A DNA stretch of 63,794 bases, counting the filler, from Asterionella formosa (lineage: Eukaryota): NCBI GenBank assembly GCA_002256025.1. It is 8 parts of 8 records of this genome, joined end to end, with 100 filler letters (N's around TTAATTAATTAA, not from the genome) between each part and the next. Parts side by side here need not be neighbours in the genome. Positions count along the whole stretch, not along the records: positions 44,761 to 63,794 come from NKIB01003856.1; 7 more parts are not named here. The stretch is one strand, 5' to 3'. Under the pieces are notes generated by a model. That model made no database searches and was not told the origin of the DNA. It worked only from the letters and a program-made list of their open reading frames with translations. Each line of letters starts with the position of its first letter. Within the stretch, counting starts at the first letter, position 1. The translations under genes and the position numbers were made by a program. This document shows positions 3,417 through 63,794 of this stretch, piece after piece.

Positions 3417-3440
3417 CATCTACAAAAAAAACTATCATAT
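3417..3440. repeat. Left terminal inverted repeat of the CMC element
   Basis: Matches the reverse complement of 14340-14362 and of 48664-48686. Confidence 0.8.
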
Positions 3441-3479
3441 TTCCATGATGCATCATAGGATTGTGATCATCTGATCATA

Positions 3480-3960: not shown

Positions 3961-4129
3961 TTTTCAATTCTCACATGATACTACATCTCCTATTTAGATT
4001 CAGCATAGAAGGAGATACGAAAATGTGCGTAACAGACTACTGTCCACACAGCTATAGCTATAAAATGATTCTGATTAGAATATCATATTCATATCGCTTG
4101 CTCGTTTCTGCATTTGGTATAATGTACTT

Positions 4130-4560
4130 GAATTAACTATTGAACTTGTCCGCATCTTTGATACCATCAAGAGAGCGAAAGCAAGTGGCTCTTTTCATTG
4201 TTGTTTGCTTGTAGGAAGAATTTGATATCTGTATCGTCATTTGCTTGTTGGAATTTTCCGTTGCCTCAAATTGCTTGGCATGTGCGTGCACACACTGTCG
4301 ACTTGTTTTCATTGGTATGTTGTTCTTGTATTCACTGTTGAACTTGTCCGCATCTTTGTTAACATCAATAGAGCGACAAGTGGGTTTCTTCATTGTTATT
4401 TTCTCCTGGATAAGTTGGTGTCCGTGTCATCCTCTACAATAGAGAGACAAGTTCTTTCGTTGGAAAAATTGGTACTATGGTATCATTGGAACCACTGTCC
4501 GTTGCCTCAAACCTGATTAGCGTCTGAGTACCGGCATGTGCACTGTCGACTTTTGTACAT
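4130..4560. repeat. Degenerate ~200-bp tandem duplication inside the CMC element
   Basis: TTGAACTTGTCCGCATCTTTG at ~4140 and ~4338; CCGTTGCCTCAAA at ~4258 and ~4499. Confidence 0.7.
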
Positions 4561-5344
4561 TACAGGCGGAGTGACTTGTTAGCTACTAAATTGCGTGATA
4601 TAATAATATACCCCGTAGCACGATGCAGAATACAGTTGCTTCCCAATCATCTCATCATGATTGATAAGATGATATTGTGATATCATGATAGGGTTACATC
4701 GATGCTTACATCACCAAAGTGTGATACGTAATATTGAATAAAGTACATCACATAGCTATGATGCATTGATCATAGAACTGTGATGATTTCTTTAAATGTA
4801 TATGATATAATTTTGATCAAAATATGAATATGTTGAAATAGTACAATGACAATAAAATACGATAAAATATGTACGCAAGTGTTACCAATACATCACAGAA
4901 AATAAATAAATCATAATTACGTTACTTAATAAAGAAATTCGCTTTTTAATGTATACAGTAAAAGCCAACGCTTAATATGATAGTATTATACAGTGGATAG
5001 GATCTAAGTATACGGATGCGTTGATATGTACATCACTATAACATGATTTGTGATATGGATTGATGCATATCACATACCGGTATCCTCAACAACCAGCCAT
5101 CACGTTCATTGTCGTGTCATCTTTCCTTGTTTTAGCTATATATATATGCCAGCATGTGTATTGTGTAAACACTACGCTGGCGGAAAATGCATATTACACT
5201 GTGCTCTGTTCAACAATTACTACACTCGGTTACCATCACATCAGTTTCACCTCCACAAGCGCCGCAATAAGATCCGCGAAAAGCTCCACGTCTCCCTTCC
5301 ACTGTTTTACATCATTGTCTTCTGGCCCTTTGACAACTTTCCAA

Positions 5345-7062: not shown

Positions 7063-7069
7063 TGGACCA

Positions 7070-9949: not shown

Positions 9950-10096
9950 GCAATGTCGACAGTGACCATACTATGCATAAAATACACGGTTGCTACAATT
10001 TCGATTGTGAGACTCAGATGGGGATTTGTTCTTCCGAAATTTGTAGTTACACAGATAACACCATTGCAATGTGCCTAACAATCTCGGTCATGTAAC

Positions 10097-10339
10097 ATGT
10101 TTCAAACAGTACTGACAGCTGATGATTTATTCAAGTTAGAAGAAATTGTAGAAGAGGAAAAAATTACGATACAAAGTGAACTCAATGGGGAAGCCTATGA
10201 CAAGGCAGGCCCTCGCTGGAAAGTGCTAAAACAACTTGGTGTAATCAACAATGCTCGTGTAAAGCGGATGTTACAATCTATCCCAGAACAATTACAGAAA
10301 GTTATTTCAGATCGCAAAGACATTGCAAATTGCAAATGA
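10097..10339 (+). CDS. Hypothetical 80-aa helical protein inside the CMC element
   Basis: Intact ATG-TGA ORF with natural amphipathic composition, divergent from the transposase gene. No family recognised. Confidence 0.4.
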   Translation: MFQTVLTADDLFKLEEIVEEEKITIQSELNGEAYDKAGPRWKVLKQLGVINNARVKRMLQSIPEQLQKVISDRKDIANCK

Positions 10340-10761
10340 TGACCAAGTCAGGATATGAAAAGGATAAAATGAAAATGAATTAATATATAATAATACATTG
10401 AGCGCCACTTCGAACATGCTGCTGTGCTGGAAAATGCAGAGTCGTGAAATTATCACTCCACCATAGTAGTAAAAATGGAGGTATACCGCTACATGTAGTA
10501 CAGGCGGCACTAATAAAAATAGTAGTAGTATAGAGCAGAATCAATGTTTTCCTATCATCTATGATATGGCTTGCATTTTAGAAGTCTTATACTAACTATA
10601 ATCATTATGTAACTACTAAGTATGCATTGGATTCTATTAGATCCATTCAAAATCAACATTGTCATCAACATCCCGTTGATTAATGCGGTCATTATAATCA
10701 ATATTCTTTTCAGAAACATTTGGTTGAATTGATTCAACAAATTGATGCATATCCTCTTTAC

Positions 10762-11364
10762 TTACGTTGGGAAATGAGAAGTATGAGTGTGGGTAGATGA
10801 TATTTGTGGTGGGAGTAGCAATTCCACTAGGATTCCTGCCATATTCAGATCGATTCTTTTGTGAAAGTCCAGTATAGATTTCCTTCGTATAATAAACGAG
10901 TCAATCATCCATTGATCAGTAAAACCATTTGAAACTGAACTTTCATTCCTCACACTTATTTTAATAAGTGGTTTCCCACCAATGTCGACAAAATCGGTAG
11001 AATGACGAATTTCGTTCTCTGAAATTTCATGGGTATCTGGATTGAAACCCCATTTTTTTGGTTGTAATCGGAATTTTTCTTTCAGCACCAAGAAGCAAAA
11101 TGCTTCTGTACTGGCAGCATTGATCAGTGAACCAACAAAACGTGTTTGAAATTCACACTGTGCCCAAAGAATGAGTTGAAATTTGGTCACACCAGATTTG
11201 TCTCCTGTTAAAAATGGTTCTCCACGGCTTGTCCTGCCTATAAAATACACCGGAGGAAGAACATCACGCCAGACTTGGTATCCATGGCTTCCCCTGTCAA
11301 TGTCCTTTGACTGCGCAAAACGATAAAGCGTCAACGCCCACCTAATAAAGTCATCAATATCCAT
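10762..11364 (-). CDS. Hypothetical protein or exon (200 aa) inside the CMC element
   Basis: Long open frame in AT-rich DNA with globular composition. May be an exon of a larger gene together with 11474-12496. Confidence 0.5.
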   Translation of the reverse strand: MDIDDFIRWALTLYRFAQSKDIDRGSHGYQVWRDVLPPVYFIGRTSRGEPFLTGDKSGVTKFQLILWAQCEFQTRFVGSLINAASTEAFCFLVLKEKFRLQPKKWGFNPDTHEISENEIRHSTDFVDIGGKPLIKISVRNESSVSNGFTDQWMIDSFIIRRKSILDFHKRIDLNMAGILVELLLPPQISSTHTHTSHFPT

Positions 11365-16750: not shown

Positions 16751-18415
16751 TCATTTCCCACTTTGGGCCAAAATGCAAAGTGCTCCATTACCTTTTTCTT
16801 GGATACCAGCATTGGATGAGTGATTTCGTATAGCAGCCTCAATTGCAGCTTTTCCACTGGCATCGGAAATCGCCATCTTGTTGTAGTCGTTATTCAAAGC
16901 CAAGTTCCAAAGCGCTCCACAACTACTATATTGCACATTAGCATTGGATGAATGAGTCTTCATTGCAGACAGAATCATAGGGATGCCTCCTCCTTCAGAA
17001 ATTGTTTCCTTGTTGTTTTCATTATTGTCAGCCAAGTTATTCAGTGCTGCACAACCATAGTGTTGCACATTTGCATCGGCTGAATGAGTCTTCATCGCAG
17101 AAAGAATCATAGTAATACCTCCTGCTGCAGCAATCATCACCTTATTGTTATCATTCATAGCCAAGTTATTCAGTGCTGCACATCCATAGTGTTGCAAATT
17201 AGCATCGGCTGAATCAGTCTTCATCGCAGAAAGAATCATAGTAATACCTCCTGCTGCAGCAATCATCACCTTATTGTTGTCATTCATAGCCAAGTTATTC
17301 AGTGCTGCACAACCATAGTGTTGCAAATTAGCATTTGAGGAATGATTCTTCATCAAAGACAGAATCGTTGTGATACCTCCTGCTTCAGCAATTGTCACCT
17401 TTTTGTTTTCATTCACTGACAATTTTAAAAGTGCAGCACAACCAAAGTGTTGCACATCAGCATTTGAGGGAAAAAATTTCATCGCAGACAGAATCAAAGT
17501 GATACCTCCTGCTTTAGCAATTGTGACCTTGTTGTTTTCATCAACAGCCAAGTTATTAAGTGCTCCACAACCATAGTGTTGCACATTAGCATTGGACCAA
17601 TGAAAACTCATCGCAGACAAAATCGTAGTGATACCTCCTGCTTCAGCAATAGTCACTTTGTTGCTGTCATTATTATTAGCCAAGTTCAAAAGTGCTCCAC
17701 AGCCATTGGATTGCACATTGTCATCGAAGGAATGAGTCTCCATTGCAGACAGAATTGTAGTGATACCTCCTGTTTCAGCAATCGTCACCCTGTTGTTGTC
17801 ATTCATAGCCAAGTTATTTAGTGCTCCACAACCATAGTATTGAACTTTAGAATGGGACGAATGGGTCTCCATCGCAGACAGAATTGTAGTGATACCTCCT
17901 GTTTCAGCAATCGTCACCCTGTTGCTGTCATTCATAGCCAAGTTATTAAGTGCTGCACAACCATGGTATTGCACATAAGTGTCGAAGGAATGAGTCTTCA
18001 TCGCAGACAGAATTGTAGTAATACCTCCTGCTTCAACAATCGTCACCTCGCTGTTGTCATGATTACAAGCCAACTCCCAAAGTGGTGAACGACTTTCTTT
18101 GTAAATGTCAGCATTCTGCTCATTCATTTGTTCAATCTCTGAAAGAACTGCAGTAATCGGAGACGAAACGGAAGAGGCAGTTTGCTGAGGCATAAGAGTC
18201 GTTAAAACAGTAGGCCCTTGGGTATTCCTACGTTCATGATGGCATTCAGGGCAGCTGTCTCGCAAAGTCTTCCAACCTCCAAATCTCTTCTTTTTGCGAA
18301 GCTGAATGTCTGCGTGATGAGGACAGAATCCATTCCTAATGAGCTCAACTTGCACATCATGCTCGCTTGTAATTGAAGCATCATGGGTAGGGGCGCATGA
18401 AACTCCAGATGACAT
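16751..18415 (-). CDS. Armadillo-repeat protein (10 repeats) with N-terminal CxxH...CxxC motif, paralog B
   Basis: Intact intronless ORF. First ATG at 18415 (the track start at 18460 is a GTG). GFCPHHADIQLRKKKRFGGWKTLRDSCPEC followed by ten ~42-aa ARM repeats. Confidence 0.92.
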   Translation of the reverse strand: MSSGVSCAPTHDASITSEHDVQVELIRNGFCPHHADIQLRKKKRFGGWKTLRDSCPECHHERRNTQGPTVLTTLMPQQTASSVSSPITAVLSEIEQMNEQNADIYKESRSPLWELACNHDNSEVTIVEAGGITTILSAMKTHSFDTYVQYHGCAALNNLAMNDSNRVTIAETGGITTILSAMETHSSHSKVQYYGCGALNNLAMNDNNRVTIAETGGITTILSAMETHSFDDNVQSNGCGALLNLANNNDSNKVTIAEAGGITTILSAMSFHWSNANVQHYGCGALNNLAVDENNKVTIAKAGGITLILSAMKFFPSNADVQHFGCAALLKLSVNENKKVTIAEAGGITTILSLMKNHSSNANLQHYGCAALNNLAMNDNNKVMIAAAGGITMILSAMKTDSADANLQHYGCAALNNLAMNDNNKVMIAAAGGITMILSAMKTHSADANVQHYGCAALNNLADNNENNKETISEGGGIPMILSAMKTHSSNANVQYSSCGALWNLALNNDYNKMAISDASGKAAIEAAIRNHSSNAGIQEKGNGALCILAQSGK

Positions 18416-19091
18416 GTTTGATTTGTTCTCGTTGATTGCTTTGATTGTTTGTGATCGCACGTTGTGATGAAACGCCTTATTCTTTCTTTGCTATTGTTGT
18501 TTATGCAAATCTTGCGTTCTTGAGTCCTTGAGTGCTGCTACTGCAATAGTTCCTCTACTGGTGTCACCTGTCGATGATTTCTATCTTACATTCACGCTCC
18601 AAATTCATTCAGTCATCGCTCATGCCGAAACTTTTGTGTATCATACCGTAATTGGTAAAATTAAACCCAAGTTGTATTTTCCCGTAGGCCTCTGGTATGT
18701 GTCTACTGGGTCATGTTAATACTGGCACGGTATTGATCTGAAAATACTAGTGGAAGCACCGTGTTACAACAGTATTTGCCAGTAGAAAAATTAAACCCGG
18801 TTTAACTGGGGGTTTAATTTTTTGGTTTAATTAAACCATAACTGTACGCACGATCATCGTAGGAATATACACTGTACCTGGTACCTGGTACCGGTCGTTT
18901 ACACAAATTAAACCCCATCCTCATTCATGTACCGGTACTGGTACCTGGTACCTGGTACTCGGTACTTCGGTATGCAGCAGCAGTAAGGAGAGGAAGGTGT
19001 GACTGATGGGACACCAACAGCAGGTGAAGGAGGGAAGTCTGAGCTGCCAGTTTGCTTTTGGAACTATATACTTGGGTTGCACTGCCTCCCA

Positions 19092-19191
19092 NNNNNNNNN
19101 NNNNNNNNNNNNNNNNNNNNNNNNNNNNNNNNNNNTTAATTAATTAANNNNNNNNNNNNNNNNNNNNNNNNNNNNNNNNNNNNNNNNNNNN
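19092..19191. other. Artificial contig linker (N44-TTAATTAATTAA-N44)
   Basis: Identical 100-nt linkers also at 38261-38360, 39541-39640, 40821-40920, 42101-42200, 43382-43481 and 44661-44760. Confidence 0.98.
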
Positions 19192-37273: not shown

Positions 37274-40200
37274 TCCTTTCTTCCCTCCCTTTTTGTGTTA
37301 TCTCAGCACAAGTGCGATTACTAGCGTAAGTTTTAATGTGCTTTAAATCCTTAATTAAATACCCTGACAAATCATCACTATTCATCCCAAAGGTAAATCA
37401 GCTGTTGCATCAGGTGTGATAATGACTGTGACGACTGATCATAGTATTAGCAAGGCTATCAGGGGGTAATGGTTGTGCCTGTTCGTGTATACACTTCATA
37501 GGAATTTAGATTAGAATTCTTTCGAAAATCACGTCTATAGTCGAGAACAAAAACAAAGCAGCAAGGAATCAGACGGTAGTCACACTACGAAGGTTTCCGG
37601 AATCCTTTTTGGGAATCGTCGGAAAAGACGCTATCACCATGGCGGAAAAGCAAATGCTCATAGCAGTTTGTGAGAATAAGTCGAAGCAAACGGCGTGATC
37701 ATTGACACGATGCAACATTATGAAGATTATGAAAGGAAAAGAAGAAATAACAGGAAAACCCTGGAAATCACACTCAATTAACAACTCTAACTATGAATGC
37801 AACAATATGGAAATTGCGCTCTTGCCAAGAACGGCGTGTTAGAAGTAAAGATTGCCAAAGCCAGACAAACGGCACTATACTACAGGAATGGAAAGGAGAA
37901 ACAGCAGACAGAAAGGTGCGCATTAAATGTGCGCTCTAGTTGAAACACATAGAGATTCCTGATTCCTGATCAGGTTATGAGTGTCAATATATTTTCGCCT
38001 CTAGTGACCTGATTAGAAACATGTACCACAATCCACTAGATGATTGATTCAAGATTACATGGTTAAATATCGCGTGTAAAATGCCACAGTTGAGAGAGGA
38101 ACTTTCAGGAGAAGTTCTCTCTAACCTGTTAAATGGACTCTAGAAGACGATCAGACCTAGAAGCCAAATCAATAAATGATTGACTAGACAATTACAGATA
38201 TGTCCGTAACATCAAGGAACATTAAAGAAGCAAACTAGATATGATCTAGTTATGATTAACNNNNNNNNNNNNNNNNNNNNNNNNNNNNNNNNNNNNNNNN
38301 NNNNTTAATTAATTAANNNNNNNNNNNNNNNNNNNNNNNNNNNNNNNNNNNNNNNNNNNNAACCTATACATGGTTTCATTTCCATACGTAGGATTATTTA
38401 CCGGGACCAATTCAAATTATAATAACATCTAATATATGTCGGCATACTATAAAATATGTTTCACATAGCTACATACAAAGTAATTTAGTAATTTTGATTT
38501 GTGCTGCTGTCGTTGGGGGACGATGAGACAGCAACTCCTTCTTGATCATGACAATATTATGCACTGAATATCTCCACGAAAAATGACAATTTACTATTGC
38601 TATTTCGTAAATATATATAGCCTAACATAGAAAAGGTAATCATTCAATAAAAAATTTTGATCTAGAAATTGCAACTAGAATTTGTTTTCATAGTTGTTTT
38701 CTCAATTTTGATGATACAAACAAAAACGAGACATTGTTGAGTCCGCAGTGCCAGTGACTAGTTTGATAACTCCTATTGGATAATTATTTCTATCTTACGT
38801 AAAAACAGATGATAAAACTTGAGCAATAGAAATCTCGGAGATGGAGCAACATCTCAAAATGCAAGAAAATACCTCAAGGCATCATTTTTCACTGACCATC
38901 ATGTACAAACTAATTGTCGTGGCTCATATGTCTATGGAATCTTGAGCAGGTCATTTCGATGTTAAATATAGATATACAGCATAAAGACACCATGTAACAA
39001 TACACTGCATGTTCTTCATGCGACTAGAAAATTCGCATTGTGTACAATGTAATGAATTCCCCTGACTGATGGTTTGTGCAATTTCGGACACCTTTTTGCA
39101 AAAATTGTTTTCTTTCCAGGTTACTGAGCCCTTTTGCGGTTGCCTCACCCCTCAACTCCTCTTCTTTCTTTGCCGTAGACACTGTTGTGAGGTGTCTTTC
39201 AACCCACTGCTTCCTTGCTTCTGCTTTGGATTTCTGGGCAATCAGTAAAACAAAACCTCTACTGTGTTTTCATACTTTCTATGTGATTTTTCTGCCACAC
39301 AGCCTTTCCCATTCCTTGAAGTTCTGGACTACCACCACCTCCTTCTGTTTCTCTCCTTCATTGTCCTTCTCTTGCTTATGTACACACATTCTTGCCATCC
39401 TCCTTTGTTGTCATTCACAAGAGGCTGCCACCCGTCTCCATGATATGTAGTGAGAATAGTAGTTGAAATAGTGAAATTAATTATTCGATAGAATTTCTAA
39501 ATTAGTTGAACAGCCTTCAGAAAGTCAGTTTAATGAACTTNNNNNNNNNNNNNNNNNNNNNNNNNNNNNNNNNNNNNNNNNNNNTTAATTAATTAANNNN
39601 NNNNNNNNNNNNNNNNNNNNNNNNNNNNNNNNNNNNNNNNTATAATCCCCGATGTCTTGCACATCATGGGTACTCTGAATAGGTGACTAGAAAGGTTCAC
39701 AATGACATACAGGGCTCACATAATCATTTTTTCAAGCCCAGCTCAACCAGGCGATCGAAAATAGATTTAATTTTTTTTAGCTCACTCGTTTTATTCGTTC
39801 AACTCTGTTTGTTACCTCTGAAATTGTTTAGGATTGATCGCTTTGATAGCATATGGCTGACATTTCCATTTTGGCTGGGTTGCTGTTGGCATTTGTTGCA
39901 GCAAAAGCAACTTTGTCAGGAACACTGCCCAGCGCTGACCACCACGATATGTGCGACCCTCATTCAAACAATATCATCTCAGGAGCATTCATTTCAACTT
40001 GTATGTGTTAATGATTACTTAGAGATCCTGTTTTGACAATTTGCCATTGTTCAATTGTCAAAACTCATGATTTTTCTGCATACACATCATCTTGCAGAAT
40101 TGTCTAAGTCTTTCTTTAGCATTTGCTGGATTGTCAGTTCTTAGAAAACCCACTGTTTTTTGGGTTAGTGCATTGGTCCATACACGCCGTCTCAGGATAA

Positions 40201-42200
40201 TGGCCAAGGAAACGAGAAAACAACTGCCTTTTGACAGGGATGCAATCAATGAGAACCTGGCTTGGCGCATCCCTCTTGTCCTTAGAATTTGCGTTCAACA
40301 CAGATGCAGCTTGGCCATCAGAGCGACAAGGAATCAAATATTTGCAGTTAGTTTTCTTGTTAGTTGGAAGCAATTGTCAATTTGGCTGACCACATGGAAT
40401 TGACAGACACAACACACACACACATACAGGCAGCTTATACCATTGAGCGATGAATTGGATATTTTATACTTGAGTGAGAAAAGGATGACCAGCCATCATG
40501 ATTGAAATCTTGCTAAATGTGAGACTCTAGAGGCTCCCTTACTTGTAATGTTTCCCTTGTCTAGTCTGCAGACTTGTTCTGTTTTATGGCCTTTTTCATG
40601 ACAAGGTCATTGACAGGCACAGCCATACCTTGTTGGATTTCCACTGTGGGTAATTACATTCCAAGTGAAAAGACAATGTGGCATAAAGTACTACAATGCC
40701 TTTTTTGCAGTAATAGTTCATGGAATAATACTGGCCAAGTGTTTGGTTATCATCCTTGTTTTCCCCAGGCTCCTCTACACTAAACTCACAGCTTGTAGTA
40801 CTATCATTGGCTATTTGCCANNNNNNNNNNNNNNNNNNNNNNNNNNNNNNNNNNNNNNNNNNNNTTAATTAATTAANNNNNNNNNNNNNNNNNNNNNNNN
40901 NNNNNNNNNNNNNNNNNNNNACATTTACATTTACATTTACATTACTTAGGCAAGGAACATTTCATTGCATTGCATTGTCTCACTGATTGATTCGTTACCG
41001 ACAAAAGCACAAATGTCGACAGTTTTGACAATTTTGACAATTTTTCGCACAAGCCAACAACTATCCTAGAAATGTTTGTTCAAGTACCGGTATAGATTTT
41101 CTGCAAACCAAACAACGCCCTACTGGTACTACCCGTACCAGCAAATATGCAGGAGGAGCTTCCATTTTAATGTCGTGGTGTTTCGCGTTCGCGAAATATA
41201 GTCGAGACTGAGACTAATAGTGAGACTGATCCATGGCGAAAGTTATCAGCTGGACCTTCTCAAAGGAATCTAGCCAAAGGAAAGATTCTATAATGCCAAA
41301 TGAAAAAGCAAAAATTGCAGGGAATAGGCGAACCCAAAGAAACTACCGGTATGAGCAACAAGAGGAGTTACACTACCGTTATGCGTTATGCAGTTGCCGC
41401 CAAGAATGTCTCCGATTCTTTCCTCGAGCATGGAAATACTGCGGCCAAAAGCCAAAACTCAATCAAGATGAGCCCGCAAATGCAAATGCAAATGCAAATG
41501 TCCTCGTTGATGAAATTTGCTTTGTATCTCAACGATTCATTGAAGAATTCAATATGACTGAAAACAGGACAAGCAAGCAAGGAACAGGGTAGCTATTCGG
41601 AGATATCAATGGTTTTTGTTTGAAACCATTGTATTCTTAGGAGGGGTTGTATGTTGTTTGAATTGAAATTACCGTTACATCAAGGGGATCAGCTACTACC
41701 ATGACAGGAGTTGTATGACCCTAAATATTACATAATACCTGAGTAGGAAATAGAAACCTGTTGTGAAATAACCGATTCATTTGTTTTGAATATTCGTACC
41801 GATATTTATCACAACTCAATTACACCCATTATCATAAGAACTTCGTGGAAGCAAGCAAGAACACAATCGTCATGATAGCTACTGTTACTGTTACTGTTCC
41901 ACCAACGCACTCGATATGACTGCAGAAAGCCAGCTTCTACCAAAGATCATTGCTACTTGCAAAGTATATCAGGCAGATCAGCAGTTGACAGTCCTTCAAA
42001 TTTGTTGTGGCTGGGCTGTGCTGGCTGTTGAGCAATCATATCATTATCTTTGTGCGTGAGCCATTATGTTTGCCTTGCTGTGTATGTCATCGTCGTCGTC
42101 NNNNNNNNNNNNNNNNNNNNNNNNNNNNNNNNNNNNNNNNNNNNTTAATTAATTAANNNNNNNNNNNNNNNNNNNNNNNNNNNNNNNNNNNNNNNNNNNN

Positions 42201-43369
42201 GGTGATCTGAAAAATTCATTGAAAAACAACCCACATCATCAATATAAATTTCCACATCCTCTAAATCACTAAGGATCTGTTCCATAGGTTCTTGTGCAAT
42301 GTCAGATGATTGTTTCACCCCCATAGGGAGACGTAAACATTTATATAAACCAAATGGAGTTGAAGTAACACACAATTTTTGACTCTCCTCATCCAATGCA
42401 AAAGTATAGTATTGCATGGAAACATCCAATTTGGTGAAAAATACATATCCAGCACGTTTAGTGAGAATAGTTTGTATTCGAGGCAAAGGATATATATTGC
42501 GATTGATGACTTTATTAACTTCACGAAAATCTGATACCCATCGGACACTTCCATCCTTTTTTTGGAATAATAAAAGTGGGAGATGCCCATTTAGAAGCAC
42601 CACATTTTTGGAGGACTCCAATATCACATAATCGTTATAATTCCGTTTTGAAAACTTCTAAATGAATATGAGCGACCGGATATGCTCGTTGATGACGAGG
42701 GACAGCATCTGATAATAATTCCAAATGTACCTGTTTATGAGGATAGACTTTTAATTTGCCATCAAATAATGTTTGATATTTAACCAATATAGATCGTAAA
42801 CATGATCGTTGTATTGTTGTCAAATGTATCTGTTTATCCACCACTGTATCAATATTTACGTAATTATATTCAGCAGCTTTAATTTCCAGCGCATATGAAG
42901 ATTCCACAATCATAAGTGCATAGAAATATAATAATATATCTCGTAAACGTTCTCTATCATCAAAGAATGTGAGAGGATGCATAGGAACAATCATATCCAT
43001 ACAGGACATGGTGTTATTTACGAAGTCAATGGTTAAGCCAACTTGACGTAGGAAATCACGTCCTAAAATAACATCAAATGTGCATAGACCATTAAAGACT
43101 TGACACTTTTCTTGTAAAATATGAGCGGATCGATTAAATTCCGGTAAAATCAGGTCATATAGCATGACACTGGCATGAGATGAATAAGTACCAGCTATGG
43201 TATGTATTAATTGGGAAGTCTCCTCGTCAGACAAAGAAATACCTTGAGGCATACTAACCCGTTCATGTATTAAGGATAACGATCCTCCACTATCGAATAA
43301 TACTCGTAGTATTTGATGTATCGGTATATTATCCACCAATCTTGGCGCTAAAAGGGACATCGGAATCAA
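42201..43369 (-). mobile_element. Ty3/Gypsy pol fragment (aspartic protease + RT), disrupted
   Basis: VLFDSGGS and DVILGRDFL (protease); VRWVSDFRE, YPLPRIQ, KLDVSMQYY, RLPMG, YIDD (RT). Stop/frameshift near 42630. Confidence 0.9.
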
Positions 43370-43481
43370 ATCAATTGATGTNNNNNNNNNNNNNNNNNNN
43401 NNNNNNNNNNNNNNNNNNNNNNNNNTTAATTAATTAANNNNNNNNNNNNNNNNNNNNNNNNNNNNNNNNNNNNNNNNNNNN

Positions 43482-43608
43482 GATGGGTTGGACGTAACGC
43501 TTCAAGTACATACTTCGTGCTTGGCTGGATGGAAAAGGCAGCCGTACCGAGGCGAAGATGCATCGCAGCCAGCGAAGCGAGCAAAAAAACAGTTGGAATA
43601 ATTCTCAT
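43482..43608 (-). CDS. 5' end of a probable plastid-targeted protein (truncated by the gap)
   Basis: MRIIPTVFLLASLAAMHLRLGTAA-FSIQPS: signal peptide followed by Phe at +1, the ASAFAP-type motif of complex-plastid algae. Confidence 0.55.
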
Positions 43609-45555
43609 ACTTCCTTGCTCTTCAAAATTGAAATTGAATTGTGACTGCTAGCTAATAAATAAATATACTCAGTATATTCAAAATCAAATCTTTGAGAACC
43701 CACTCTGAATGCATTTATTTGAGAACCCTGCTACCAGGTACCATCCTAAATCAATCATCATACATAGAAGGTATATTCGTGCTCATACTTTCAATACAGG
43801 TACCGGTATCATCATTTCACGCACGGTAAAAAATCTGGTTCTCCGCCCTCTGCCATGGGGTCTGTGTCACTCTTCATACGAGCGAGATGAGTATCGTACC
43901 GGTACGTATTCTTACCGTATATTTAGACTACCAGGTACCAGGTACAGGTACCTGGTGGGTACCTGGTATCAGGTACGACCAGAATAGAAAATACTGCAAT
44001 CTGAACAATGTGTTACACAACTACTAGGTACTGGTATCTCCTGGAGATCATACATAAGAATGCAAAAATGTGATTACTGGTACTGGGCGGTACATGATTG
44101 GCAAGTTTCGCCAATCGAGTTATTTAACTTGATCTTTTCTTATGTCAAAACGTGTTTTACCAGATACCCTGGTATTGGTACTGGAGCAGGTTACTCCGGA
44201 GTAATAGACTCATCAGTACCAGGTGCCAGGTTGCCCTCATGGTAACGGTACGTATGTGTTCCTGATACATCACGCCACGAGTTGCATCAATAAAAGGATG
44301 AGAACACGATGAGAAGAATATGATAGCACGAGTTCGCATCATGTCAGCACCGGTAGACCTGCACGTGAGGCAAAGGTGACATCATCATACAAAACTATTT
44401 GTACAGAGGAATTAGTATGTTTCGCAACAACATGTAACGAAATTCTTTCATCGGACACCTGCCAGCAATGACGTAAAAATCGATGGCAGTGGCAGCCCAT
44501 GCCTGTCATCACTCGCAGCCAGCTCGTGAGTTCAGACAAAGGAGTTCCAAACAGGGGGAGGTATCATCGGCATGCATCCAGCGCTTGGGCAAGTCGCCGG
44601 GGCTGCTCCAAGCAATCCATCCGGATCATTCAATGCAGCACTAGCACCCGCCAAGGAAGANNNNNNNNNNNNNNNNNNNNNNNNNNNNNNNNNNNNNNNN
44701 NNNNTTAATTAATTAANNNNNNNNNNNNNNNNNNNNNNNNNNNNNNNNNNNNNNNNNNNNACCACAGGGTGTTAATTTTGCTCGGTGGACTTTCCCCTCC
44801 TTCTGCCAATCGCTTGCAGATTTGTTTCTGTGCAGTTTTGAGTGGTCGAACGAATCAATCGGACAAATTGGTTTGTCACATATCGTTAGTATTTAACAAC
44901 CGAATGATAAATTCATTTAGGTTTCAATCTTGGAGGAAACAAGAAAATACGAGTTGACATGATGGGTCCTACATAAATGACCCAAGGGTATGGTACCAGT
45001 GCTGGACCTACGGTACCCTAAAATACTGCTTCGAAAATATACTGGGTGGTACCTGGTACTATGTACTGTACACTACCGGTAGTAATTTCATGTCCTATGA
45101 TCGCTGGGACGCAAATGCGTTGAATTGATATGGTTCACGTATGCTATTTCGTGTACAGCATACAGAACTGTTGCGAGGACTCCCGCGGAGTGCCTGGTAC
45201 TCCAAAGGGTAAAAATAATTGACCTTGTGTATTGATCCTATCATGGACGAGATTCCGCTAGACTACCGGTACCCGGTACAAGCAGTACCGGTATGTAAAT
45301 GATGTAATCTAGCCACAACAAATGTACCGGTACAACGGAGAACTTACGACCCCTAAACGTTTTTGTTGAAAACTGCACAGACGCGATTATGCAAATTTGA
45401 ACGGATATAATCGAACAATCGACGACACCTTTGCTCTCATTCTTGTTGCTGCCTTGTTACCAGGTATCCAGTTGAAACCCATTCCAGCTCTCTACATTCC
45501 GATAAAGGTAGAATACTCTTTCAAAATTATCATACGTAAACCCTGAAGGTTGTTT

Positions 45556-50929: not shown

Positions 50930-51439
50930 CGTTTGCGGCACTTTCTTGAATTTATGTCTAAAGTGACGTATTTATGCTACTTTTCTAAAATATTATGTTA
51001 CTTTTTTGAAATATTATGCTACTTTTTCCATAATTTATTCGGGTTAAACAAAAATTTATTTCACTTATCGAATAATTATGTGATCACACCAATCATTATG
51101 TGTGTTTGTGACAATATATGTTGACCAACTAGCCATCGCAACAGTATAAAAGCGAAATTATGCTGCTCTGCCGCAATATTATGCTGCTTTCACCATATAA
51201 TGAACAAAAGAGTCGCCGATTCCGATTCACTTATTATTTTTTCCGCTCCAACAAATTTCTTTGATCTGAACTGGCAAAGAATAACACATGCAAGAGGAAG
51301 ATTCACACAGTAGAATTCAGCACACGTAGTAGTAGTTGATGTTGTAGACACATTATTAAGTCATTGTTGATTGTAGAGATTACAATAGCCTGCCAGATTG
51401 CAAATAAAGCACCGTTGGTACTCGTTGAGCATTGTTGAG

Positions 51440-52680
51440 CATTGCATGTCTCCGTAGTGAATCGAAATTGAGATTTGCCACAATGGCCTTCTCCGTTTCG
51501 GAGCAGCTACCAATAGTCTACAGCGATAACTCTAGCAAGTAAAATATAGAAAAAGAACCAAAGGATGAGTAGCTGACAACAATTGAATTTGTAAATTCGT
51601 TAAGAAACAGCAGTTGCACATTTTTAATATTCAATGCATGTCGCCGTAGTGAGTCAAAATTGAGATTTGCCGCAATGGCCGTCTCCTTTTCGGAGAGGCT
51701 ACAAATAGTCTACAGCGACAACTCTAGCAAGCACAATATAGAAAAGAAGCAGAGGATGAGTAGCTGACAACAATTGAATTCGTAAATTCGTTAAGAAACA
51801 GCTGTTGCATATTTTAACATTCAATGTATGTCGCCGTAGTGAGTCAAAATTGAGATATGCCGCAATGGCCTTCTCCTTTTAGGAGCAGCTACAAATATTC
51901 TACAGCGATAACTTTAGAAAGTACAATATAGAAAAAGAAGGAAAGGATGAGTAGCTGACAACAATTGAATTCGTAAATTCGTTAAGAAACAGCTCTTGTA
52001 CTATATTTTAACATTCAATGCATATCGCTGTAGTGAGTCGAGATTGAGATGTGCCGCGATGGCTGTCTCCTTCTCAGAGCGGCTACAAATATTCTACAGC
52101 GATAACTCTAACAAGTAAAATATAAAAAAAGAATGAGAGGAGGAGCAACTGGCAATGAGCGAATGAATTCGTAAAATTGTTTAGAAACAGCTGTTGCATA
52201 TTTTAACATTCAATGCATATCGCCGTAGTGAGTCAAAATTGAGATGTGCCGCAATGGCCTTCTCCTTTTCGGAGCGGCTACCAATAGTCTACAGCGATAA
52301 CTCTAGCAAGTACAATATAGAGAAAAAAAACCAAAGGATGAGTAACTGACAACAATTGAATTTGTAAATTCGTTAAGAAACAGCTGTTGCATATTTTTAA
52401 TATTCAATGCATTTCGCCTTAGTGAGTCAAAATTGAGATTTGCCGCAATGGCCGTCTCCTTTTCGGAGCGGCTACAAATAATCTACAGCGACAACTCTAG
52501 CAAGCACAATATAGAAAAGAAGCAGAGGATGAGTAGCTGACAACAATTGAATTCGTAAATTCGTTAAGAAACAGCTGTTGCATATTTTAACATTCAATGT
52601 ATGTCGCCGTAGTGAGTCAAAATTGAGATGTGCCGTAATGACATTCTCCTTTTCCAATCGGCTAGATTACATCTATATTG
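51440..52680. repeat. Satellite array, ~190-194-bp unit, ~6.5 copies
   Basis: CGCCGTAGTGAGTCAAAATTGAGAT recurs at ~51452, 51642, 51832, 52026, 52221, 52415 and 52605. Confidence 0.95.
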
Positions 52681-53009
52681 ATAACTGTAGCAATAACAAA
52701 TTGGTTGTAAAGTCAAGGGCCAAGGAGATGAGGACTACTATCAACTTCATTGAATTCAACCACTCCATAGCTAACCTGTATTCTTCGCAATATTTCGTAC
52801 TTTTTCTGCACACCACCAGTCAATGCACTCCAAAAATATTTGATGTCTGATTCGACCAATAAAACTCATAGCAGTTTAGTAGATGGATGAAATTTGGTAG
52901 AGAATAATAGCTTTGAGTTTTGGTGCGCCCCTGCTGATGTACTCATCACGGCATACTAGCACATCCTATGGTAGTAAATCAAAAATGAGAAGTGCCACAA
53001 TCGCCATCT

Positions 53010-55010
53010 ACACATCCTGATGCATCCGGATGCCTCCTTTGATCAATTTATGTTCATTATGAGTATATCGACATTCGCCTTGACGGCATTGATCTTCTGT
53101 ACATCAAATACTATCCTGGATAGAAATCGGCCTTTAATTGGTGGAGAAAGATGGTTTTGAATTTTCGTTTTTACAGCATTGATCATATCAGTCCACCATC
53201 ACCGAAAAATTACAAAATTTACACATCCTGATACCTCCTTTTATGTTCGTTCTCAGAAAACCAACATTTGCCATGACGGCATTGATCTCGTGTACATCGA
53301 ATACTATGCTGGATAGAAATCGGCCTTAAATTGGTGGAGAAAGATGGTCTGGAAGTTTTGTTGCCACAGCACTGATGATCAGTCCACAAGCATCCGAAAA
53401 TTTACACATCCAGAGGCCTCCTTTGATCAATATATGTTCGTTCTCGGAATATCGATATTGGCCATGACGACATTGATCTCGTGGACATCGAATTCTATGC
53501 TGGATAGAAATCAGCCTTAAAATGGTGGAGCAAGATGGTTTGGAATTTTTGTTGCAACAGCACTGGTCATGCAGCAGTCCACAGCAAGCACCGAAATCTT
53601 ACACACAATCATGATGACCAATTTGATCAATATAGGTTTGTTTTGAGAATATCGATATTTGAAATGACGGAGGTGATCTTGTGTACATCGAATACTTTTC
53701 TAGATAGAAATCAGCCTTAAAGCACTGATGATCAGTCCACAAGCACAGCAAATTTACACATCCTGACGTCTCCTTTGATCAATATATGTTTGTTCTGAAA
53801 ATATCGACGTTCAAAATGACAGCATTGATCTCATGTACATCAAAAACTATGTTGGATAAAAGTCGACTTTAAATTGGTAGAGAAAGGAGGTATGGAAGTT
53901 TTGTTGCCACAGTACTTATGATCAGTCCACAAGCAACGAAAATTTATTTCACATCCTGATGACCAATTGAATCAATATACGTTCTTTCTTAGAATATCGA
54001 TATTCGAAATGCCGGCACTAATCTCGTGTACATCGAATACTGTGCTGCATATAAATCAGCCTTATATTGGTGGAGAAAGATGGTTTTGAATGTTTGTAAT
54101 GACAGCACTGATGTTCAGTACTACCCAGCAAGCACCAAGATTTTACAAACCTTCCCGATGACCAATTTGATCAATATATGGTCATTCTGAGAATATCGAC
54201 ATTCTCCATGACGGCATTGATCTCGTGTACATCAAATACTTTTCTAGATAGAAATCAGCCTTAAAATGGTGGAGCAAGATGGTTAGGAATTTTTGTCGCC
54301 ACAGCAATTACAATCAGTCCACAAGCACCGAAAATTTTATTTCACATCCTGATGAACAATTTGATCAAAATATGTTCGTTCTTAGTATATCGACATTCAT
54401 TATGACGCCATTGATGTCGTGCTCATCGAATACTATGATTGATAAAAATTAGAATTAAATTTGTGGAGAAATATGGTTTGGAATTTTTGTTGCCACAGCA
54501 CTGAAGTTGTGTACATCAAATACTATGCTAGATAGAAGTCTGCCTTAAATTGGTTGAGAAGGGTTGTTTGGAATTTTTGTTGCTTCTGCACTAATGATCA
54601 AGCCACAAGTACCGAAAGTTTACACACCATCCTGATGAGCAACTTGATCAATCCAGTTCGTTCTGAGCGAGCATATCGACATTCGAAATATCGGCATTGA
54701 TATCTCGTGTAAATTGAATACTATGCTGGATAGAAATTGACAATGAATTGGTAGAGAAAGATGAATTGGAAGTTTGGTTGTTAAAGCAGTGGTCATAAGT
54801 CCACAGCAGACACCTAGAATTTACACATCCTGATGCCTCCTTTGGAAAATATACGTTCGTTCTGAGCATATCGACATTCGACAAGAAGCCTTTGATTAAA
54901 TTGTTTATGAAAGAAATGAATTGGAATTTAGGTTTTGCTACAGCACTGGTCATCAGTCCACAGCAAGCACCGAAAATTTTACGCATCCTGATGACGAATT
55001 TGATCAATAC
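53010..55010. repeat. Second satellite array, ~180-200-bp unit, ~11 diverged copies
   Basis: Recurrent CACATCCTGAT...TTTGATCAATAT...GGCATTGATCTCGTGTACATCGAATACT...GATAGAAATC.GCCTTAAATTGGTGGAGAAAGATGG. Confidence 0.92.
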
Positions 55011-57313: not shown

Positions 57314-58106
57314 GTTGGACAGGTATCATGACTGTAGTTGAATGGGTCATCACCCTAGTTGTCACAATGATGTGCAATTTCGCTCATAGTTGATTGTTGC
57401 GTTTTTTTGTTTCTTACCAGTATAGTCATCAACGATATTTGCCATGCTGTCAGCTTGATTCCCTGACACACATATGTTGATCTTATTATATGTATATATA
57501 CATTCAGTGATGGAGAATGTTCACATACATTTTTAGCGAATTCGAAAAGGAATCTATGTACGTACGCGCAAATTTCCCCTGATTTAATTATTTCAAATGG
57601 AATCACGTCATTCAAAAATAGCTGATAAAATTCATAATTCCAGGGAATTCTGGCAACCCTAAGCAATATTTTAAAATTTGCCTAGGGTTTCAAATGCAGC
57701 AACCTTAATCATCCTCAACTCAAAAACCGGTACCAGGTACCAGGTACCGCAGTACCAGTATGCCAATTTTATGATTTCGTCTTTAATTATGTATATATAA
57801 TATCACGGTATGATACAGATACACTTTGGATACCACTACACCGGTATACCGGTATGTTTTCTCATTTGAATGTAAAATTTATATCATTATGGTCAAATCC
57901 CCTCCCGCCAGTTTTTGTCATACCAGTACATATATTCTTCCCCCACATCGAAATGAAACGAAGAGCTTGGGTACTCTCCACATTTTCCACATTTCTTGTT
58001 GTGGCAATGCTACACTTTCTGACAACATCAAAGTGGCTGTTTATCGCGATGAATTCGATTGCCCAAGCATCGCCATCTGACAATGCCATTTATCCAATAC
58101 ATGTAG

Positions 58107-58373
58107 TGTTGGAGAAAATATTTTAGGAAAGAAAATCCCGGTATGAATTACCTACTACATATTGAATCGAATGAATCAAAAAAGAATACGGTACCAGAGA
58201 ATTCGAAAACAATCTACACCAACAGTGAAAACCCATAATTCTATTAAAACTCTTAGGAACGATTACAATCGATCACGGAGACATCGTTGTTCATATCTAC
58301 AGCCTATTTGGTCCCTGACGTGTCCTTACAGGATACAAGAAAGCAAAGAGTGCTTCGGGACGCAATTTCAACA
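58107..58373 (+). repeat. 5' LTR
   Basis: TGTTGG...TTCAACA; about 10 substitutions vs the 3' LTR by manual comparison (~96% identity). Confidence 0.97.
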
Positions 58374-58388
58374 GTTTTAATAGAATTA
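58374..58388 (+). promoter_or_regulatory. Non-canonical primer-binding site, complementary to the element's own LTR
   Basis: GTTTTAATAGAATTA is the exact reverse complement of TAATTCTATTAAAAC at 58236-58250. No TGG. Confidence 0.75.
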
Positions 58389-58506
58389 GCCGGCCAGGAA
58401 GAGCCGTGATACCACAATCAACAACAAGCGGACAATTGAGAGTCCGGAGACAAGATCTGAGGGTACCAAACCATCCAGAGTCTGAAGAAGTCGCACAGGG
58501 CGCATC

Positions 58507-61500
58507 ATGAGTGGCAAAGGAAAGTTTACCAAGAAGGCTCAAGCCAAGGGCAAGTTTCAAGCCAAGGGAGGGAGCAATATTGCTTCTCACTCAATCAAGA
58601 AGTCAGTCAATGACTATAACTACTACCTCGGATCATCGAAGCAGGCATCTGACTATGAGACTACTACTGAGTATCTCATCAACTGCATCAAGAAAGTGTT
58701 TGATTATGGCAGCGACATTGGAATCGCACTCAAGTCATTAGAACCAATCAACACATCGGTATGGAAGCCAAGAATGCAAGTGAGCATGGCAACAACAGAA
58801 GAAGATCGCGCTGCAGAGAATCGGCAATTTGAGATTGAGTTCAAGGCCGATTATGACACCTACAGTAAAAGGGTACAGGCCTACGAAAATAATAATACCA
58901 AGGCATATGCATTGCTCTGGGAAAGATGCAACAAAGCCATGAAGAACAAGATTGAAGCGAGATCCGATTACAATAGGATCGAAAATAACCCAATAACATT
59001 GCTTATGGCAATTAAAGAACACGCATTCAATTTTCAAGAGAATCGATATTCAATGTCGATCATTTTAGATGCGATGAGAACGCTTTTGTTCACAAAGCAA
59101 AAAGAAGGAGAAAGTCTACAAGACTACACCAAGAGATTTCGTGTGGCACGAGATGTGCTCAAGTCACACATGGGAGGACTCATTATCCTAACCAAGTTTG
59201 TTGAAGCCATGAAAGGATACAATGAGAACGACATCAATCAACGAGATAAATTTCGTGAACAAGCTTTCAGTCAATTTATGGCATATTTATACCTCAAGAA
59301 TGCCGATAAAGCCAAATACGGATCAATTATGACCAGGCTGAACACTCAACAATCACTCGGAAACAATCAATACCTGAAGACCATCACCGAATCAAATAAT
59401 GTTCAGCAACCATCGTTTTGATGTAACAAATAAGTCCAACTACAAGAAACCAGGAGATAATGATAAAGAGAGGAAACAAAAGGATGAAGGCAAGGAAGAC
59501 AAAGATGTGAACTTATTGTTTGCACAGTTAGAAGGAAAATGTTACTGCTGCGGAAAAGCAGGTCACAAATCTCCTTCTTGCCAAGACAAGAATAAACCCA
59601 AAAAGGAATGGGCTATCAACAGGGCCCAAAGCCATGCACAGGCACAGGCTAATACATCCAACACGAGTACAGTTACCTCTATTAATTCCAACAACCCGCC
59701 GTCATCACAAGCTTCACAACAAGCAAATGTCAATCAATTTGGATGGATGGGAGCTCATATGAAACTACAATTTTACCAAGCATCTGAGATGCGTGACTGG
59801 ATACTATTGGATAATCAATCAAGTGTCACAGTCTTTTGCAATCCAAAAATGGTTGATAACATTTGAATGTCAACCAATGGAAGCATGCACCTGGCCACAA
59901 ATGGTGGATCCATGGTAACTAATATGAAGGCGGATCTTCCAGAATGGGGAGAAGTATGGTTTAATGAAAAGGCAATCACAAACATCTTCAGTTATGCCGA
60001 AATGGCAGATAGGTACAGAATTACCTACGACTCCAAGAAAGAAGATGCATTCATTGTTCATTTGCCTGACAAAACAGTTCGATTTGAAAGAATTGAGATG
60101 AACTTATATGTTTTCAAGCCAACTACAAGAATTAAAGTGGAGAATGCTCAAATGTTAAATACACTTGAAGAAAACAAAACATTTTACACTGAACGTCAAT
60201 TTTAGAGAGCTAAGCGAGCTTGTGATCTATTTCATGCCTTGGGTTCACCATCAATTAACGATTTCAAGGCAATAATTCGTATGAATACAATCAACAATAA
60301 TCCAGTGACTACCGATGATATCAAAATTGCAGAGAAAATGTTTGGACCTGACATTGGAACACTAAAAGGCAACACAACTCGTTGCAAGCTGCTGCTGGTT
60401 GTGAACGACTATATCGAGATTCCGAAGGAGCTTATCCAAGCTCAACACAAAGTGATTCTTTGCATGGATGGAATGAAAGTGACTGGACAATCATTTCTCA
60501 CAACAATTTCTCGAAACATTATGTATAGGACAGCACAATGGGTTAAGAATCAGACAGCTGAAGTCTATTGAGATGCTTTGATTCAAGTATTCCGTGTTTA
60601 TAATACCGGAGTATTTAAAATTACAACAATGCACTGTGACAATGAGTTTCGACCTTTGATGGAACAAATTTCCAATGAATTTCAAGTCACTATGAACTAC
60701 GCAAACCCACAAGAACATGTTCCCGAAGCGGAACGAAATAATCGAGTGATTAAAGAATGCGTGCGCGCAGCTTATCATCGATTACCTTTCAAACATTTGC
60801 CATGACTGATGATTAAGATTCTAGTGACAGAATCTGCAAAGAAAATGAATTTCTTTCCAGCAAAGAATGGGATATCCCTGTATTACAGTCCTCATATGAT
60901 TTTACATCAACAAAACCTGGACTATACTTGACATTGCCAGTATACATTTGGCACTTATGTGCAAGCACATGAAAAACCTGTGTTTTCAAACACTAATGCA
61001 CCACGCAGCCTAGATTGCATTTATCTACGCTACAATGACAACATGCAAGGAGGTCATGAATTGTTACACCTACCTACAAATTCATTGATCACTAGACGAA
61101 CAATTACTCCTCTACCACTTACCCCAGCAATCATGAATCAAGTTCACGCCCTTGCTGTGCAGGAAAATATGCTAGATGGTCTCAAGATATCAAATCGAAC
61201 GGGACAACTATTTCATGATAGTGCTTGGATTGCAGGAGTGGATTATGATAATGAAGCATTTGAAGATGCACAAGATGAAGATTATGAAGATCAAGACACT
61301 AGTGATGACGAAAGCAAAGATGAAATTCTCGGAGAAGAAGACTATGATGAAATGACTCCGGATGAAATATATGAAGCAGAACAGCTTGAATTAAACAACA
61401 ATATCCAAGAGAATGACCCTTAAACAAAGCAACAACGAAAATAATGTTGAAATGAATGCAGATGAAATCCAAGCTGAGGATGAAGAACCAGTGAATGAAA

Positions 61501-63374
61501 CTGAAAAAAACCAGTGAATGAAACTGAAAATGAAGAGGCAATGTTAGAAGTCAATCCAAGCACTGAGGATGACACAGACCCAAATGTTAAAACTCCAAGG
61601 TCTGGAAGAGTCTCAAGACCACCATCAAAACTAACCATGGTCCAACATCATTTGCATACCCAAGCACACTGTCAAGAAGAATACACGACTGATAATGCGA
61701 AAGTGATCGCAATGACAAGCAATGTGTTATATGAATGAGATGTCTATCGATGAAGAAGCATTTCACTTTGTTCAGTCATACAGCTTAAGAAAAGGCCTCA
61801 AGAAATTTGGCCAGAAAGGAAGAGACGCTGCGTATAAAGAAATGAAACAACTACATGATAGAGTTGTATTTGAACCGATTAGGATTGAAGACCTAACCGA
61901 TAGCAATTTTTTTGGTTGAAAGAGAGACAAGAGCATTAAAGGCAGAGAATGTGCCAATGGCAGTTTGCAACGTGAATACATGGAAAGAGATGAAGCAGCT
62001 AGTCCAACTACCATGACTGAATCTCTTATGATAACAGCAACAATTGATGCAAAGCAAAATCGCGATGTTATGACTGCGGATATACCCAATGCATTCGTGC
62101 AAGTGGATATTGATGAGAAAGAAAAAGGGGAACAAATCATTATGAAGATTAGAGGTTTGCTTGTCAATATGTTGACAGAGCTCAGCCCCAAGACTTATGA
62201 AAAATATGTTGTTTATGAAGAGAACAACAAGGTCCTATATGTTAGGATGATCAAGGCATTATATGGCATGTTACAGTCATCATTATTATATTACAAGAAA
62301 TTTCGGAAGGATATTGAGTCAATTGGATTCAAGGTAAACCCATATGATCCATGTGTTGCAAATCGCATTGTTAATGGCAAACAGCACACAGTTACTTGGC
62401 ACATAGACGATTTGAAATCAAGTCATGTGGACAGCAAAGTGAATGATCAATTTTTGGAATGGCTCAAACAGAAATACGCTTCTGACGAAATTGGTGAAGT
62501 CAAGGTCATGCGTGGAAAGAAGCATGATTATTTGGCGATGACACTAGATTACTCTATTCCAGGAGTGTTGAGGGTGGACATGACCAAATATGTGAAATCA
62601 ATGATTGATGATTTTCCAGTGAAACTTGAAGGTGTCGGAAAATTCCCATGGACAGATAAATTGTTCACAGTTGATACAAAATCAAAGAAGCTTGAATATG
62701 AAAAAGCAAAAATATTTCATACTTTTGTTATGAAAGGAATGTTCCTATGTAAGCAAGGAAGACAGGACATTCAACCAGGAAATGCATTTCTGGCAACCCG
62801 AATAACCGAACCGAATGAAGGCGGTTGGGCAAAATTAGTCAAGATCATGAATTTCTTGAAAGCAACTCAGAATGAGGTTGCATCTATGAGTGCTGATGAC
62901 ACTCAGAGCATTAAATGGTACATTGATGCGGCGTTTGCAGTACACAAAGATTTTAAAAGTCACACTGGAGCTACATTGTCACTTGGAAACGGAATTATTT
63001 GTTCTATGTCTATGAAACAGAAAGTGAACACTAGAAGTTCGACTGAAGCAGAATTGGTTGGTGTCGATGACATCATATCAAAGGTGTTGTGGACGAAATT
63101 ATTTATTGAAGCACAAGGACACAAGATGACTACGAATGTCATTTACCGTGACAATACTAGCGCAATGAAGCTAGAAGCAAATGGAAAAGCAAGTTCAGGA
63201 AAACGCATGCAACATTTCAACATCAAATATTTTTATATTACTGATCTTATTGAAAGAAAGGAAGTACAAATCAAGTACTGTCCAACGGAGGCAATGTTAG
63301 CAGACTACATGACGAAACCACTGGTTGGAACGAAATTTATTCATCTTCGTGAACAAATTATGAATTCAAAGTGA
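58507..63374 (+). pseudogene. Copia gag-pol with premature stops and frameshifts
   Basis: Gag (KQKEGESLQDYTKRF), zinc knuckle CYCCGKAGHKSPSC, protease WILLDNQSS, integrase HCDNEF...EAERNNR, RT ADIPNAFVQ / WHIDD, RNase H SSTEAELVG. Confidence 0.95.
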
Positions 63375-63396
63375 GCATCCATGTCCAGCAGGAGTG

Positions 63397-63663
63397 TGTT
63401 GGAGAAATTATTTTAGGAAAGAAAATCCCGTTATGAATTACCTACTACATATTGAATCGAATGAATCAAGAAAGAATATGGTACCAGAGAATTCGAAAAC
63501 AATCTACGCCAACAGTAAAAACCTATAATTCTATTAAAACTCTTTGGAACGATTACAATCGATCACGGAGACATCGTTGTTCATATCTACAGCCTATTTG
63601 GTCCCTGACGTGTCCTTACAGGATACAAGAAAGCATAGAGTGCTTCGGGACGCAACTTCAACA
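63397..63663 (+). repeat. 3' LTR, preceded by a short PPT (AGCAGGAGTG)
   Basis: Matches the 5' LTR; followed by the TSD TGTAG. Confidence 0.97.
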
Positions 63664-63794
63664 TGTAGAGAAAGGTGACGTCGTTGAGCCTGCAACACAA
63701 ATGCATGCTTTAATGATTACCAAAAGAAAAGCTGCTATTGCAACGATTAATTCCACCATGCTTTCACGTGTGCATCGTACAGCCTCGACGGGAA

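Follow-up and report, generated by a model that had tools for sequence, protein, structure and literature searches.

What primes reverse transcription of a Copia-type retrotransposon when the site directly after its 5' long terminal repeat (LTR) complements the LTR itself? The question is raised by an element of the diatom Asterionella formosa, for which self-priming had been proposed. This LTR retrotransposon spans positions 58107-63663 of the window, by which we mean the whole 63,794-nt stretch of DNA that was analyzed, and a blastn comparison restricted to the window finds no second copy there. Its 5' LTR (58107-58373, + strand; TGTTGG...CAACA) and 3' LTR (63397-63663, + strand) are direct repeats of 267 nt each, 96.3% identical by blastn. 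In the alignment, the element is framed by a target-site duplication, TGTAG, one copy of which precedes the 5' LTR (58102-58106, + strand), the same 5 nt following the 3' LTR (63664-63668, + strand). The sequence beyond the 3' LTR is unrelated to that beyond the 5' LTR. A candidate polypurine tract, AGCAGGAGTG (63387-63396, + strand), purine-rich and short, adjoins the 3' LTR, its function being a prediction. The LTR ends (TG...CA) and the 5-bp target duplication are those of Ty1/Copia elements. The window also contains other repeats. Tandem-repeat arrays with a period of ~190-194 nt lie directly upstream of the element (51430-55009), and two related repetitive blocks (1-1730 and 16778-18645) are 77-90% identical, with many shifted self-matches. 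Paired 44-nt N runs recur every ~1280 nt, with six pairs in 38261-44760 and one at 19092-19191, and look like a masked stretch within a 1.28-kb tandem repeat.

As for the site next to the 5' LTR, the 15-mer GTTTTAATAGAATTA at 58374-58388 (+ strand) is without the initial TGG of a tRNA-type site. Its reverse complement is found with 0 mismatches in the 5' LTR (58236-58250) and again in the 3' LTR (63526-63540), exactly as the original prediction had it. The perfect helix extends to 16 bp once T58251:A58373 is counted, which makes the LTR-adjacent site complementary at 16 of 16 positions to the element's own LTR, in its predicted R region. The two arms are a predicted self-primer, TAATTCTATTAAAACT (58236-58251, + strand), putatively the first 15-16 nt of the transcript, and a predicted primer-binding site (PBS), AGTTTTAATAGAATTA (58373-58388, + strand), composed of the terminal A of the LTR and the 15 nt that follow. 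The primer sequence recurs intact in the 3' LTR, at 63526-63541. The pairing site begins exactly at the border between LTR and internal sequence, a border defined by the two LTRs and the 5-bp duplication. Even with up to one mismatch allowed, the 15-mer has only three matches in the 63,794-nt window, where 0.02 would be expected by chance and where none of 100 shuffles reached three. The same pair was recovered by an inverted-repeat search of the window, scored as 19 nt at 95%.

The coding region places the element in Copia. Downstream of the leader lie a gag ORF of 304 aa (58507-59421, + strand) and a decayed pol region with at least five ORFs (59399-63374, + strand), among them an ORF with a CCHC knuckle (59399-59866) and an ORF containing an RVT_2 reverse transcriptase (RT) (61965-63374; Pfam E-value 3.4e-8, 33.8 bits versus a cut-off of 31.6). 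The window copy, with its broken ORFs, is dead. Intact relatives possess a single ORF of 1646-1650 aa, relatives of about 1600 aa are numerous, and the lineage is, from these intact ORFs, apparently active. Among the relatives, RVT_2 scores 37.7 bits in L038, an intact copy, and 30.6 bits, slightly below the cut-off, in L003, while PF07727 is present in almost every one of the 120 relatives listed. In L038, RVT_2 covers about residues 1153-1391 of 1650 (i.e., it lies in the C-terminal third). Pfam searches with the gag, knuckle, and middle ORFs of the window gave no hits, nor did phmmer against PDB sequences, and in L038 the Pfam rve family was not detected, gag_pre-integrs reaching just an E-value of 0.14. 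An AlphaFold model of residues 560-900 of L038 has a low mean pLDDT of 57, with a core at 70-85. The top Foldseek hits listed for this model are all retroviral integrases (best E-value 9e-8, with low TM-scores of 0.2-0.35), and the alignment of the region has conserved D, D, and E residues. An integrase-like fold upstream of RT implies the Copia gene order. This, together with an RVT_2 score above the cut-off, bears out the assignment to Copia that had been made from the window alone. It also sets the element apart from the Tf1/sushi clade (Ty3/Gypsy chromoviruses), its RT being of type RVT_2 with the integrase-like fold upstream.

Conservation of the pairing was assessed in relatives defined by their Gag protein. 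The gag ORF has 169 relatives at E-values of 1e-5 or below, the named ones belonging to Fragilaria crotonensis (76% identity) and Nitzschia inconspicua (48%), both pennate diatoms. A scan of metagenome contigs with a 27-sequence Gag alignment yielded 78 loci with Gag identities of 42-95%, which were picked on Gag protein similarity alone, ignoring leader features. In the 54 loci with at least 350 nt of upstream sequence, we then screened the 650 nt preceding gag for perfect inverted repeats whose loop measures 40-320 nt, and recorded the longest. This repeat is 15, 16, or 17 nt long in 46 of the 54 loci, 13 nt in one, and 11 nt or shorter in seven, whereas the second-best repeat per locus reaches just 8-10 nt. 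In each of the two controls (162 shuffles; 48 coding stretches of matching size taken from these loci), the longest repeat measured 11 nt. The repeat is also present in L036, L038, and L046, loci with a shorter upstream stretch, and it recurs in independent contigs of many assemblies. In the relatives, the 5' arm is located 65-167 nt upstream of the 3' arm. In 32 of the 34 distinct arm sequences, the first base of the latter is the final A of an LTR that ends in ...ACA (in CAACA in 28), the LTR border being proven for the window and carried over to the relatives via the conserved ...CAACA end.

Of the seven loci at 11 nt or below, L065 shows 15/15 pairing just beyond the scanned stretch, L031 and L068 show 14/15, and L064 retains a helix of 10 nt in the usual position. 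L039 has kept the PBS of the L013 family, the complement being absent upstream in the contig, and no recognizable repeat was found in the upstream stretch of L052 and L074. The short helix of L064 (L064:1961-2057) is bounded by the usual TCA on one side and CTAAGG on the other, and its length is near that of the 11-nt primer of Tf1. Several contigs repeat themselves with a period of ~5.3 kb and 80-99.8% identity (L017, in which 1-5666 corresponds to 5267-10932, and L005, L016, L012, and L033). Such a pattern would be produced by tandem elements with a shared LTR, by circles with a single LTR, or by an assembler wrapping around a high-copy element, and the 3' LTR ends of such wrap-around or tandem contigs are unusable for fixing borders.

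The element or close relatives were found in 20 SRA runs from 15 studies, six of these runs being RNA libraries, and the family is very abundant in one run (X1), in which 89,351 contig pieces match the element. A scan of viral contigs returned no relatives of the RT ORF. When contigs of one DNA run and three RNA runs were compared with positions 58000-63395, the RNA libraries were found to contain pieces along the whole element, bearing in mind that contigs cannot show the start, end, or strand of an RNA. One listed RNA contig spans the 58373/58374 junction, with only 27 nt on the LTR side, fewer than the 31 nt required by the comparison, and six contigs of an RNA-library run (X15) diverge from the window sequence just past 58373. 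The high depth of X15 at 58180-58359 is counted per contig and was left out of account.

Next, we considered how the two arms evolve relative to each other, using an alignment with one representative for each of the 34 different arm sequences found among the relatives (alignment A3). RNAalifold on A3 predicts this helix alone, with 15 pairs, 13 of which are changed on both sides. Within the helix, 98.6% of the cells are paired versus 62.5% in column shuffles, none of 500 shuffles reaching the observed value; the 98.6% is inflated, since a perfect repeat of 13 nt or more was a condition for entry into A3, and 46-47 of 54 loci is the figure free of this bias. Double-change cells number 170 versus 45.6 in shuffles, and the covariation score is 0.874 versus 0.19. 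When the partner is slid by 1-3 columns, 38-47% of the cells pair. Counting further pair types gives at least 32 compensated events, and single compensated substitutions separate even close relatives such as L057/L058 and L028/L032. The compensatory changes that the original prediction looked to in relatives are thus found in abundance, with a perfect helix of at least 15 nt in 46 of 54 Gag-selected loci, and with the complementarity spread over 34 arm sequences. The pairing is real, functional, and lineage-wide.

The pattern of this pairing is unusually strict. Positions 1-15 of the helix are Watson-Crick paired in all 34 sequences bar one cell, with 0 G:U pairs. The helix has a sharp edge, pairing falling to 14/34 at position 16 and 6/34 at position 17, with background level beyond position 16. 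The arms have a mean G+C content of 19%. Helices maintained by folding alone normally tolerate G:U, and a total lack of wobble is unusual for a helix kept in this way. It is what one would expect of a PBS that every replication cycle copies anew from the primer. In retroviruses, the PBS is regenerated from the tRNA primer.

The arms are embedded in a structured leader. Directly 3' of the predicted primer is a conserved CTTAGG motif (58252-58257, + strand), present as CT[TA]AG[AG] in 22 of the 34 distinct sequences, which may mark the site of RNase H cutting. RNAalifold on seven closer relatives pairs the UAGG of this motif with CCUA at 58304-58307, with compensatory changes, and likewise finds compensatory changes in a helix between 58308-58315 and 58357-58365. 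This helix closes a U5 structure (58308-58365, + strand) and encloses a hairpin at 58321-58335. For the window RNA (58235-58400), the folding energy is -45.1 kcal/mol, with a z-score of -3.76, and the minimum-free-energy fold includes both the primer-PBS helix and the 58321-58335 hairpin, the latter having been foreseen in the original prediction. The other stem put forward there stands in part: its GTCCC/GGGAC pairing (58311-58315 with 58357-58361) belongs to the covarying helix, while the proposed TGA/TC extension falls outside it. On the other side of the PBS, a CCG, often CCGA or CCGG, is seen within 1-2 nt 3' of the PBS in most relatives (58389-58392 in the window, columns 272-277 of A3).

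The 5' edge of the predicted primer falls within an initiator-like motif, CCATA (58233-58237, + strand). In A3, an invariant A (column 7), preceded by a nearly invariant C (column 6), coincides with the 5' edge of the pairing, where CAYW fits 33 of 34 sequences and TCAHW 25 of 34. In Phaeodactylum tricornutum, the mapped starts of FCP genes are surrounded by CAY+1A, and TCAH+1W has been proposed as a diatom initiator-like motif (PMC4686930). This agreement and the sharp edge of the pairing indirectly support the start near 58236 of the original prediction, and from them we infer that +1 coincides with the opening base of the 5' arm (in the window T58236, or possibly A58235), which would reproduce the geometry of Tf1. 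Among the metagenome loci, no contig starts at the 5' arm. By-eye inspection finds ATTAAA or AATAAA inside the predicted primer in 6 of the 34 arm types (58243-58248 in the window, and L003, L004, L009, L029, and L033). Should this hexamer serve the 3' LTR as its poly(A) signal, R would measure just a few tens of nt.

How, then, would such an element prime its own replication? In the scheme that we favor, transcription would start in the 5' LTR at the initiator-like CA/TA, near T58236. Folding back over the structured U5 of about 120 nt, the 5'-most 15-16 nt of the RNA (58236-58251) would pair with 58373-58388, beginning at the last base of the LTR, either within one RNA or between two co-packaged RNAs. 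The RNase H of the element would cut the RNA at the 3' end of this duplex, and the freed 3'-OH would prime minus-strand strong-stop DNA. Plus-strand strong-stop synthesis would subsequently copy the primer, with the consequence that the PBS of each new copy is rewritten from its own 5' end. Since the primer would be copied into the PBS in this manner, the two arms would never drift apart. We consider it likely, on comparative sequence evidence, that the element is a self-primed Ty1/Copia LTR retrotransposon, and that the feature adjoining its 5' LTR is a priming apparatus of the kind used by Tf1. The claim that this diatom Copia lineage primes itself is supported by the lineage-wide covariation of the LTR-PBS pairing. 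One observation that the simple form of this scheme leaves unexplained comes from L038, in which the 3' repeat (5265-5459, matching 1-195) runs past ...CAACA through the PBS and leader for another 55 nt and breaks off immediately ahead of the gag ATG. The DNA beyond it is unrelated and carries, on its minus strand, a gene of glycosyltransferase family 92. This extended repeat could be a tandem-pair remnant, a non-autonomous partner, or an assembly chimera.

Three other explanations for the complementarity have to be weighed against self-priming. That it is a chance inverted repeat or an assembly artefact might be suspected from the A+T-rich arms and from the presence of a single copy in the window. 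The 15-mer, however, is expected just 0.02 times in the window, none of the 162 shuffles and none of the 48 coding controls contains a repeat of even 12 nt, and the repeat is found in independent contigs from many assemblies. The shuffle and coding controls and the covariation counts refute this explanation, whose probability we regard as negligible. Scarcely more probable is that a host tRNA, or a half or fragment of one, binds the site as an ordinary PBS, the match of the site to the LTR being incidental. Most Copia elements do use tRNA-Met or tRNA halves (PMC6317226), but here the initial TGG is missing, and the arms have a mean G+C of 19%. Moreover, the relatives have 34 different PBS sequences, each matching its own LTR. 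Since the PBS differs between families and always matches the LTR of the same element, a shared tRNA or tRNA-half primer is not tenable. No Rfam family, tRNA included, matches positions 58000-58600 at an E-value of 1 or below. ARAGORN, run on the window and on 14 long loci, detected no tRNA.

Harder to dismiss, though still unlikely, is that the helix between arm and PBS is a structural RNA element, involved in genome cyclization, dimerization, packaging, or translation control, and that another primer is used. The helix is indeed set in a conserved multi-helix leader, priming itself is what we infer from it, and fungal GalEa elements, which are Copia, have a conserved hairpin at the place of the PBS (PMC5445492). 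A purely structural role nevertheless sits poorly with the position of the 3' arm, whose first base is the final one of the LTR in 32 of 34 distinct sequences, and with the lack of any other conserved PBS candidate next to the LTR. The complete absence of G:U across 34 lineages speaks against it as well, and an arm of 15-16 nt bounded by an initiator-like motif is more readily explained by copying of a primer than by a folding constraint.

The diatom lineage resembles Tf1/Tf2 and the Tf1/sushi group of Ty3/Gypsy elements, which also have no tRNA PBS, a supporting U5 structure, and a PBS next to the LTR that complements the start of their own RNA, a start that is predicted in the diatom lineage. 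In Tf1, pairing with the PBS involves the initial 11 bases of the RNA, which RNase H severs between base 11 and base 12 (PMC7175516). The two differ in helix length, 11 bp in Tf1 as opposed to 15-16 bp in the diatom elements, where the helix takes in the last base of the LTR, and in the nature of the evidence, which is experimental for Tf1 and comes from sequence alone for the diatoms. They also differ in superfamily, the diatom lineage having an RVT_2-type RT with an integrase-like fold upstream of it. Because the superfamily differs, it is plausible that self-priming in diatoms is independent of Tf1. In our reading, the lineage works like Tf1 and is yet outside the Tf1/sushi clade.

Within Copia, the statement that priming is by tRNAs, on which the original prediction built, holds for most elements and is incomplete, as the plant TAR lineage of Ty1/copia had already been predicted from sequence to be self-primed in a survey of plant elements (PMC6317226), which also cites an earlier self-priming proposal for Houba and Osr-1. 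Like the diatom elements, TAR belongs to the Copia superfamily and is predicted to have a PBS to which the RNA of the element itself binds, but its hosts are land plants. Fungal GalEa elements, too, are Copia elements without a tRNA-type PBS that have a conserved pairing element beginning at the last A of the 5' LTR. There, it is a local 9-bp palindrome and hairpin, for which the authors found no complement in the LTR (PMC5445492). The diatom site is no such Conserved Hairpin Site, since it is not palindromic and has its partner 65-167 nt upstream in the LTR. The CoDi elements (Maumus et al. 2009) resemble the lineage in being diatom Ty1/Copia, and relatives of the window element in Gag and Pol are named for F. 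crotonensis and N. inconspicua. A term search of the CoDi paper (PMC2806351) returned no text on primer-binding sites, tRNA primers, or self-priming. More generally, we found no report of self-priming in diatom elements in a literature search, whose coverage leaves out most subscription journals.

To our knowledge, self-priming has been proven for Tf1-type Gypsy elements only, and for Copia there are sequence predictions in plants. To these, our analysis adds a large and apparently active diatom lineage with unusually clean comparative evidence, namely 34 primer/PBS pairs that are all Watson-Crick bar one cell. Two ideas can now be tested directly, one being that the primer serves to regenerate the PBS, the other that the start of the primer coincides with the transcription start. 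There is a practical side as well. LTR-annotation tools that rely on a PBS complementary to a tRNA will overlook these abundant diatom elements or score them wrongly, and the arrangement TCA/primer-CTTAGR ... CAACA-PBS (the slash marking the 5' edge of the primer) can be used to recognize the lineage. As for the broader meaning, we suggest, with somewhat less than even confidence, that a clade of Copia elements in pennate diatoms gave up host tRNA primers in favor of a private primer/PBS pair of 15-16 nt for each family, rewritten in every cycle, with an origin separate from that of Tf1/sushi and possibly from that of plant TAR. Rapid and perfectly compensated drift of such pairs might then act as a family barcode against cross-priming, and could have freed the PBS from host defence aimed at the conserved tRNA-type PBS.
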